Part shown: positions 6,697 to 6,828 of the stretch, piece by piece
How the letters are laid out: the number at the start of each line of letters is the position of its first letter
How positions within the stretch are numbered: position 1 is the stretch's first letter
DNA from: a virus
UHGV virus genome: UHGV-1395224
Strand: one strand, 5' to 3'
DNA: 7,147 bases
Made by a program: the position numbers and the translations under genes
Notes under the pieces: generated by a model
Seen by the model: only the letters and a program-made list of their open reading frames with translations
What the model was told of the DNA's origin: nothing
Databases searched by the model: none

Positions 6697-6752
6697 ATTT
6701 GCAATACACACCCATCCCGATCGCCAATTTGCAATACACATTGCAATACACA
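6697..6752. repeat. Three direct repeats of TTGCAATACACA at 17-72 nt upstream of the int start; candidate recombinase arm-type or regulator binding sites
   Basis: ATTTGCAATACACA at 6697-6710 and 6727-6740 (30 bp apart); TTGCAATACACA again at 6741-6752, tandem to the second copy. Confidence 0.55.
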
Positions 6753-6828
6753 AAACCGCGAAAAACTGGAAGGGTGATGAACGGTCATCAAAAGCATGGA
6801 AAACGACATTCCAGACGCAGCAAGGGTT

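Follow-up and report, generated by a model that had tools for sequence, protein, structure and literature searches.

Candidate integrase arm-type sites and a conserved inverted repeat at the int end of an HE-PICI in a lambda-type portal gene

The window, i.e., the whole stretch of 7,147 nucleotides analyzed here, is the int end (attL) of a helper-embedded PICI satellite (HE-PICI) of the site group B:Phage_portal_2:241. On the minus strand it carries a tyrosine integrase gene of the HE-PICI clade (int, 5439–6680), the product of which combines an N-terminal arm-DNA-binding domain (PF13356, Arm-DNA-bind_3, E = 3e-17, residues 7–94) with a PF00589 catalytic domain. The start codon of int (ATG at 6680–6678) is supported by the aligned N-termini of its homologues (MA.ENKLSDK), and a likely ribosome-binding site, GAGGG (6687–6691, minus strand), lies 6 nt before it. 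Directly downstream of int is alpA (5180–5437, minus strand), encoding a Phage_AlpA family regulator (PF05930, E = 7.5e-14) and a candidate recombination directionality factor (RDF). It is followed on the same strand by genes for a Bro-N protein, a DUF4222 protein, a D5-type primase-helicase and SSB. At the opposite side, the last 270 nt at the 3′ end of the window belong to a lambda-type portal gene B, whose N-terminal fragment (6877–7147, minus strand) is co-oriented with int and runs off the window.

The complete element could be followed in a complete genome (L001), in which the int arm is 100% identical to that of the window and the segment corresponding to window 4445–7147 is 99.5% identical overall. 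There, a 10.4-kb element interrupts the portal gene of a lambdoid prophage, with the N-terminal part of the gene on one side and the C-terminal part on the other, as in an HE-PICI. The element consists of int-alpA-Bro, a replication module, capsid and decoration genes and terS, the main genes all being co-oriented with the helper late operon. The arm is present in 64 of 5426 complete E. coli genomes, always with a portal fragment adjacent.

The window element is a mosaic. Its int-alpA-Bro end, together with the portal flank (4445–7147), is the part shared with L001, while positions 402–1098, 1159–3328 and 3603–3927 are 95–98.6% identical to a capsid-gene HE-PICI of the group E:Phage_cap_E:80 (L126), and L001 has a RepA-type helicase in place of the window's replication module. 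Judging from these identities, modules are exchanged between HE-PICIs with different att sites. Within 1086–1257, the 12-mer GGTAGAGGGCTT is present in three direct copies (1086, 1159 and 1246), accompanied by two degenerate inverted copies (1101–1112 and 1187–1198), directly downstream of the primase-helicase gene (1268–3019, minus strand). These are probably iterons of a replication origin, located at the origin position reported for GN-PICI.

Several further observations concern the L001 element and its host prophage. At the element's far end, which is not part of the window, there are three tandem units of 54 nt (10498–10659) with different perfect palindromes in the same register (CCTCAA/TTGAGG, CCCCCA/TGGGGG and CCTGCA/TGCAGG), the hairpin being kept while the sequence varies; close to the end of the element, the units may represent RNA structures or sites bound by proteins. 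AGGTGTTGAACAC occurs three times (17499–17552), one copy reading AAGTGTTGAACAC, in the divergent intergenic region that separates an icd-like from a ylcI/ynfO-like gene. These repeats look like operators; the window's version of the element lacks the exact AGGTGTTGAACAC repeat. The helper prophage in L001 is damaged by IS621 in the major capsid gene and IS1 in the early region (5309–7613 and 37545–38242), so that in this strain the satellite may be left with a helper that is defective.

Direct reading confirmed that three repeats precede int, as the earlier note had described: TTGCAATACACA is present on the plus strand at 6699–6710, 6729–6740 and 6741–6752, i.e., 19–72 nt upstream of the int ATG, and on the int-sense strand the copies read TGTGTATTGCAA. 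Copies 2 and 3 abut and form a doubled motif with a 12-bp tandem spacing, in which 6741–6752 is the core-proximal half-site and 6729–6740 the second (both minus strand). The first copy (6699–6710, minus strand) is a single extra half-site, the fifth of the element; it starts 30 bp after the second half-site of the doublet, ends 18 nt before the int ATG and adjoins the int ribosome-binding site. Copies 1 and 2 have 14 nt in common, ATTTGCAATACACA. When the 10-mer TGCAATACAC was searched with at most one mismatch, it matched in the whole window only the three repeat copies, against 0.65 expected. Moreover, of 1000 first-order Markov simulations run for the window, only 2 produced a 12-mer present at least three times, and this test disregards the clustering of the repeats within 54 nt. 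The three repeats are far beyond chance.

Their conservation points in the same direction. In an alignment of four sequences from three genera, the half-site 6741–6752 is invariant at 12 of 12 positions, 6699–6710 likewise at 12 of 12, and 6729–6740 at 10 of 12, its last two bases being AA in E. coli and TT in Serratia. Overall, 34 of the 36 repeat positions are invariant, compared with 41% in the rest of the arm. An E. coli variant with 96% identity has all its substitutions outside the repeats and outside the inverted repeat described below. Three other identities of the repeats were rejected: replication iterons and cos or pac sites, since the iterons of the origin differ in sequence and lie directly downstream of the primase gene, and the repeats flank the att core symmetrically; and a CRP-like site, since the TCACA half is absent.

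The end of the element was located by a three-way alignment of attB from lambda B (GGCATACATCGCCTTCACAA), attL from the int-side junction (AGACATAAATCGCCTTCACAA) and attR from the far-side junction (GGCATACATCGCCTTTATGAA). Because of this alignment, the exchange is placed within the identity block ATCGCCTT at 6881–6888 (AAGGCGAT in int sense), with its center at 6884.5. An extended similarity, CATA-ATCGCCTT, covers 6876–6888; the phage portal homology begins at 6876, and the identity of attL to attB amounts to only 8–13 bp. The distance of the block from the int ATG is 200 bp; the nearest repeat is 129 bp away, and the inverted repeat, on the int side of the block, 91 bp. The proposal of the earlier note that the island ends near the breakpoint between int and the portal fragment was thus borne out, and the shared core that it recommended searching for at the other end of the island was found there: attR has ATCGCCTT in common with attL and attB.

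The far end of the element carries the same motif. In L001, two further copies are present at 10165–10185, co-oriented with those next to int, and an exact 9-mer search of the 40.7-kb sequence returned 7 copies in total: 3 next to int, 2 at the far end and 2 in the flanking prophage. Measured from the core center, the half-sites are located at +135.5, +147.5 and +177.5 on the int side and at −96.5 and −84.5 on the far arm. These offsets are identical in E. coli, Edwardsiella tarda and Serratia quinivorans despite the diverged DNA in between, and in Erwinia those of the far arm are shifted by 1 bp. The co-oriented motif on two arms was also found in E. tarda, in the attR of Erwinia and in Arsenophonus. 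The Int homologues of E. tarda (88% identity) and S. quinivorans (77%) are both encoded beside split portal genes, and other Int homologues are likewise embedded in prophage late genes. A search of genome contigs with Int found no relative; a scan of genome contigs with TGTATTGCNNNNTGTATTGC gave mostly chance matches in unrelated phyla, the informative ones being Erwinia (L024) and Xenorhabdus (L078). Overall, the motif's co-orientation on both arms and its identical core offsets across three genera support the assignment of the repeats to the recombination arms of the att site of the island.

The arrangement next to int differs between site groups. The single half-site at +177.5 is confined to the portal-241 subgroup and absent at that place in the four other site groups examined, namely Citrobacter portal-227, Klebsiella (L129, an element beside a CLP_protease-family gene, provisionally taken as a site group), Salmonella portal-38 and Xenorhabdus, all of which have the doublet only, ending 10–13 nt before the int ATG. 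Within portal-241, the spacing between doublet and core is retained, and the extra half-site takes the place adjacent to the ribosome-binding site. In the capsid-80 group, a third, degenerate copy is present upstream of the doublet. A PICI that is not helper-embedded and lies next to gcd/hpt (L133), with an Int 46% identical, has a tandem of two CGGTGTATCACT copies at 5957–5977, 24–44 nt before the int ATG, as a variant of the doublet with TCAC for TTGC. To judge from these sequences, the integrase family seems to be characterized by a doubled arm element of 12 bp whose 3′ half varies. In one further element (L134, 6001–6115), the database start of the 445-aa integrase P0061 is apparently 38 codons too far upstream: the annotated ORF includes the doubled motif (6075–6098), and codon 39 is the first of the conserved N-terminus MALNKLSDK.

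Much of this architecture has a published counterpart. The parts of the paper by Tommasini, Mageeney and Williams drawn on here (2023; NAR Genom Bioinform 5:lqad036, PMC10111431) describe HE-PICIs as an integrase clade with 14 sites in lambdoid late genes, and report a doubled motif, tgTGTATTGCantgTGTATTGCa, occurring twice and co-oriented in every HE-PICI attP, with copies 81 ± 2 bp upstream and 132 ± 2 bp downstream of the attP center. As binding partners of the four half-sites, the authors propose either the arm domains of an Int tetramer, AlpA or some unknown protein. In the consulted part of the supplement, the group B:Phage_portal_2:241 is given with the identity block 'aaggcgat' and with attL and attR sequences identical to those analyzed here; its entries include Eco, Sbo, Eta and Squ, so that E. 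tarda and S. quinivorans are represented as well. In the window, the minus strand at 6730–6752 reads TGTGTATTGCAATGTGTATTGCA, matching all specified positions of tgTGTATTGCantgTGTATTGCa, and the motif starts at +132.5 from the core center, with GTATTGC at +135.5. In L001, the far-arm copy ends approximately 78 bp from the center; the difference from the published 81 bp depends on the choice of reference point. The present core assignment was reached before the published site was found and coincides with the published identity block.

Repeat copies 2 and 3 are thus the published doubled motif, and the motif, its spacing and the att site were already known. As far as the consulted parts of PMC10111431 go, the window element shares with the HE-PICIs described there the motif, the 132-bp distance, the far-arm doublet and the identity block, as well as the gene order int-alpA-Bro-replication-late zones and the co-orientation with the late gene. 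It differs from them in its mosaic structure, with a replication module matching that of a capsid-gene HE-PICI. Two other differences are the additions of the present work, both of them minor: in contrast to the four half-sites described in those parts, portal-241 has a fifth, at +177.5 beside the int ribosome-binding site (6699–6710), and the conserved inverted repeat goes without mention in the consulted parts of that text. Apart from these, the contribution consists of an independent confirmation of the motif and the att site, and a corrected core position.

The inverted repeat TGATGA-acgg-TCATCA, with a 4-nt spacer, was confirmed by reading at 6775–6790, where, with the arm sites on one side and the core on the other, it makes up a conserved block. 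The suggestion that it could mark the att core was not borne out, because the comparison of attL, attR and attB puts the crossover at 6881–6888; the repeat is well inside the element and absent from both lambda B and attR. Taken alone, it is within chance expectation: the window contains 34 perfect 6-bp inverted repeats with spacers of 0–10 nt, a density of about 1 per 200 bp, and when the 200-bp arm was shuffled, at least one comparable inverted repeat turned up in 23% of the shuffles. Its sole support is conservation in relatives. In the four-sequence alignment, 12 of its 16 positions are invariant against the 41% background, which makes it the best 16-nt window outside the repeats. No counterpart of it was found in the far arm, and this confinement to one arm is compatible with what is expected of an RDF/AlpA operator. 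The inverted repeat may be a site for an accessory protein of the RDF/AlpA type.

The competing explanation, which we rate at somewhat less than an even chance, is that the inverted repeat is either a functionless chance palindrome in a conserved arm segment, or an IHF-like host-factor site or RNA hairpin, rather than an RDF site. Besides the expected frequency of such repeats, the E. tarda sequence L003 speaks for a chance palindrome: here the inverted repeat is weakened to 4+1 bp, both paired positions being altered non-compensatorily. The conservation also continues on both sides of it, at 6753–6768 and 6800–6807. However, Serratia keeps both 6-bp arms perfect although the spacer and the flanks differ, and the repeat stands out as the best-conserved window of its length, as noted above. 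No terminator-like structure was called at this place. As for IHF, TCATCAAAAGCATG overlaps a 7/9 match to the IHF consensus by manual count, but a scan with the consensus WATCAANNNNTTR, allowing at most one mismatch, gave no match at the inverted repeat or anywhere else in the window arm (6681–6890), and its interpretation as an IHF site was not adopted.

Other parts of the arm are also conserved. The block GTCGTTTT (int-sense; 6800–6807, minus strand) is invariant in the four sequences, and the conserved segment 6753–6768 contains the invariant block GTTTTTC (6760–6766); in the Klebsiella and Citrobacter groups, a block similar to GTTTTTCG is also found ahead of the doublet. A degenerate, weak IHF-like sequence, CAGCAAGGGTTTC (6818–6830, plus strand), is located about 60 bp from the core center and deviates from the IHF consensus by 3 mismatches in E. 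coli (manual count), the homologous sequence of E. tarda by 1. In four other HE-PICI site groups, IHF-consensus matches with 0–1 mismatch have a fixed position at −115 to −101 from the int ATG (L126, 9886–9898; L128, 6159–6171; L129, 9888–9900; L130, 9888–9900), and these are judged to lie about 60 bp from the core, like 6818–6830.

An important question is which protein reads the repeats. Of the candidates raised in the earlier note, Int is the best: going by the sequence comparisons, the repeats are rather probably arm-type sites, with the N-terminal arm-binding domain of Int as the predicted binder. This reading is favored because a repeated motif unlike the core is present on both attP arms at fixed distances from it, across three genera, and because Int carries an arm-binding domain. 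It is also favored because this domain is the best-conserved part of Int among the motif-bearing elements, while divergent AlpA-like copies share only 36%. Indeed, among the HE-PICIs sharing the motif, the mean pairwise identity of the Int arm domain is 69%, compared with 50–54% for the other domains, and that of AlpA is 60.5% for type-1 copies only, the most divergent copy being 36% identical. The argument from arm-domain conservation is nevertheless weak, because outgroup integrases also have a well-conserved arm domain. The mere presence of the motif fails to separate Int from AlpA, because an AlpA-like gene directly follows int in every HE-PICI examined. Arsenophonus was considered as a natural test between the two proteins and dropped, since an unannotated type-1 AlpA-like ORF was found there right after int.

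According to the main alternative, the TGTGTATTGCAA repeats are operators for AlpA, a MerR/Xis-like protein, acting as an RDF and/or as a regulator of int transcription. Tandem direct repeats about one helical turn apart are typical of Xis-type RDF sites, and the repeats fit this pattern. The succession of int and an AlpA-like gene in all motif-bearing HE-PICIs agrees with it as well, AlpA is named as an alternative binder in the consulted part of PMC10111431, and older work, cited in the study of EcCICFT073, linked AlpA to int expression in a P4-like element. Against it, a motif found at fixed distances on both arms is characteristic of arm-type sites. RDF sites are usually restricted to one arm, as in lambda; in KplE1, the TorI sites lie on attL. 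Moreover, no copy of the motif is present upstream of alpA or elsewhere in the window, so that neither of the arrangements expected of an RDF or AlpA operator (one arm, or the alpA promoter) is seen for the TGTGTATTGCAA repeats. In the related PICI EcCICFT073, AlpA activates its own promoter, PalpA, and has no effect on Pint. Finally, the AlpA-like proteins of the motif-bearing elements are down to 36–45% identical, while the 8-bp motif is invariant. AlpA or autoregulatory operators therefore stay a candidate, as the earlier note had it, albeit an unlikely one, with the evidence of the two arms, of the alpA region and of EcCICFT073 Pint leaning the other way.

It is very unlikely that the repeats are mainly int expression signals (a promoter element, an operator or a translational block in the 5′ UTR) without an architectural role in recombination: half-sites do end close to the int ATG, both here (the single copy, 18 nt) and in four other groups (the doublet, 10–13 nt), and TTGCAA, read directly, resembles a −35 hexamer, but no promoter-like hexamer pair was found, the far-arm doublet is about 10 kb from int with no gene start adjacent, and portal-241 conserves the distance of the doublet to the core and not to the ATG. 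A promoter and terminator scan of 6500–7000 found nothing, including no sigma-70-like promoter, and a manual −35/−10 search around the TTGCAA hexamers yielded no convincing promoter. The premise that the int promoter must lie in this region is therefore not established, the more so as, according to a published model, the transcription of int comes from the helper late operon by read-through. Read-through is plausible here because the element is co-oriented with the interrupted late gene.

With Int as the reader of the repeats, the site might work as follows. The integrase would be heterobivalent, its arm domains binding the three TGTGTATTGCAA copies, two of which form the doubled motif 132 bp from the crossover center; the second doublet lies on the opposite arm at a distance of about 80 bp. 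Int protomers occupying the core (AAGGCGAT, 6881–6888) would bridge to these arm sites via bent DNA, and the bridging would build the integrative and excisive complexes, as in lambda. In portal-241, the fifth half-site abutting the int ribosome-binding site gives a 3+2 layout, and Int bound to it would probably also damp int expression in the way of IntS of KplE1. The analogy suggests Int autoregulation via this half-site; autoregulation at the level of transcription is speculative, because no sigma-70 promoter was detected in the arm. The inverted repeat, moderately conserved and found in the int-proximal arm only, is at the place where binding of a directionality factor (AlpA) or another accessory protein would be expected.

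A more far-reaching proposal can be advanced only tentatively. Portal-241 may have evolved its fifth half-site and a palindromic accessory site on one arm such that, as in lambda, different subsets of arm sites serve integration and excision, and Int, together with AlpA, may throttle the read-through expression of int, thereby timing the excision from the portal gene. HE-PICIs interrupt an essential late gene of the helper, here the portal gene, and a precise and late excision is needed for the reproduction of either partner; the arm sites would be the DNA hardware of this excision decision. Moreover, to know the reader of the invariant TGTATTGC would help to explain how the arm architecture stays fixed with the core retargeted to at least 14 late-gene sites.

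The closest analogue in overall layout is the Int arm-site system of lambda (P1, P2 and P′1, P′2, P′3). Both systems have a heterobivalent integrase with an N-terminal arm-binding domain and, on both arms, copies of a motif unrelated to the core in a 3+2 arrangement, three of the copies being on the int-proximal arm; lambda likewise has sites for accessory factors, which are expected here between the arms and the core. They differ in the motif sequence and in orientation, the five sites of the portal-241 element being all co-oriented and two pairs of them strict 12-bp tandems. Unlike in lambda, int is transcribed here away from att, with its 5′ end abutting the arm; the integrase belongs to the P4/PICI branch, and its sites are predictions made from sequence.

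In the placement of int, the element is similar to KplE1 (CPS-53), where the P′ sites of IntS overlap PintS and the integrase is negatively autoregulated (Panis et al., 2010; PMC2951348). In both cases the 5′ end of int abuts attL, and arm-type (P′) and RDF sites are positioned, or here predicted, between the core and the int start, overlapping the int expression signals. For KplE1, experiments demonstrated the promoter, the start of transcription and the binding, in contrast to the sequence-based sites of the present element, for which read-through is plausible. The motifs are also different, since KplE1 has TAAA-containing P′ sites and GTTCG-type TorI sites. TorI as a member of the AlpA Pfam family was dropped from the comparison, as the query sequence gave a weak HTH_17 match only and none to Phage_AlpA.

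The satellite P4 provides a third parallel, its Int belonging to the same broad clade as the PICI integrases. Its Vis protein, an AlpA homologue, is needed for excision. Repeated Int sites flank the P4 core, and int is regulated by Int and Vis. Unlike the window element, which is inserted in a helper late gene, P4 integrates in a tRNA-Leu gene.
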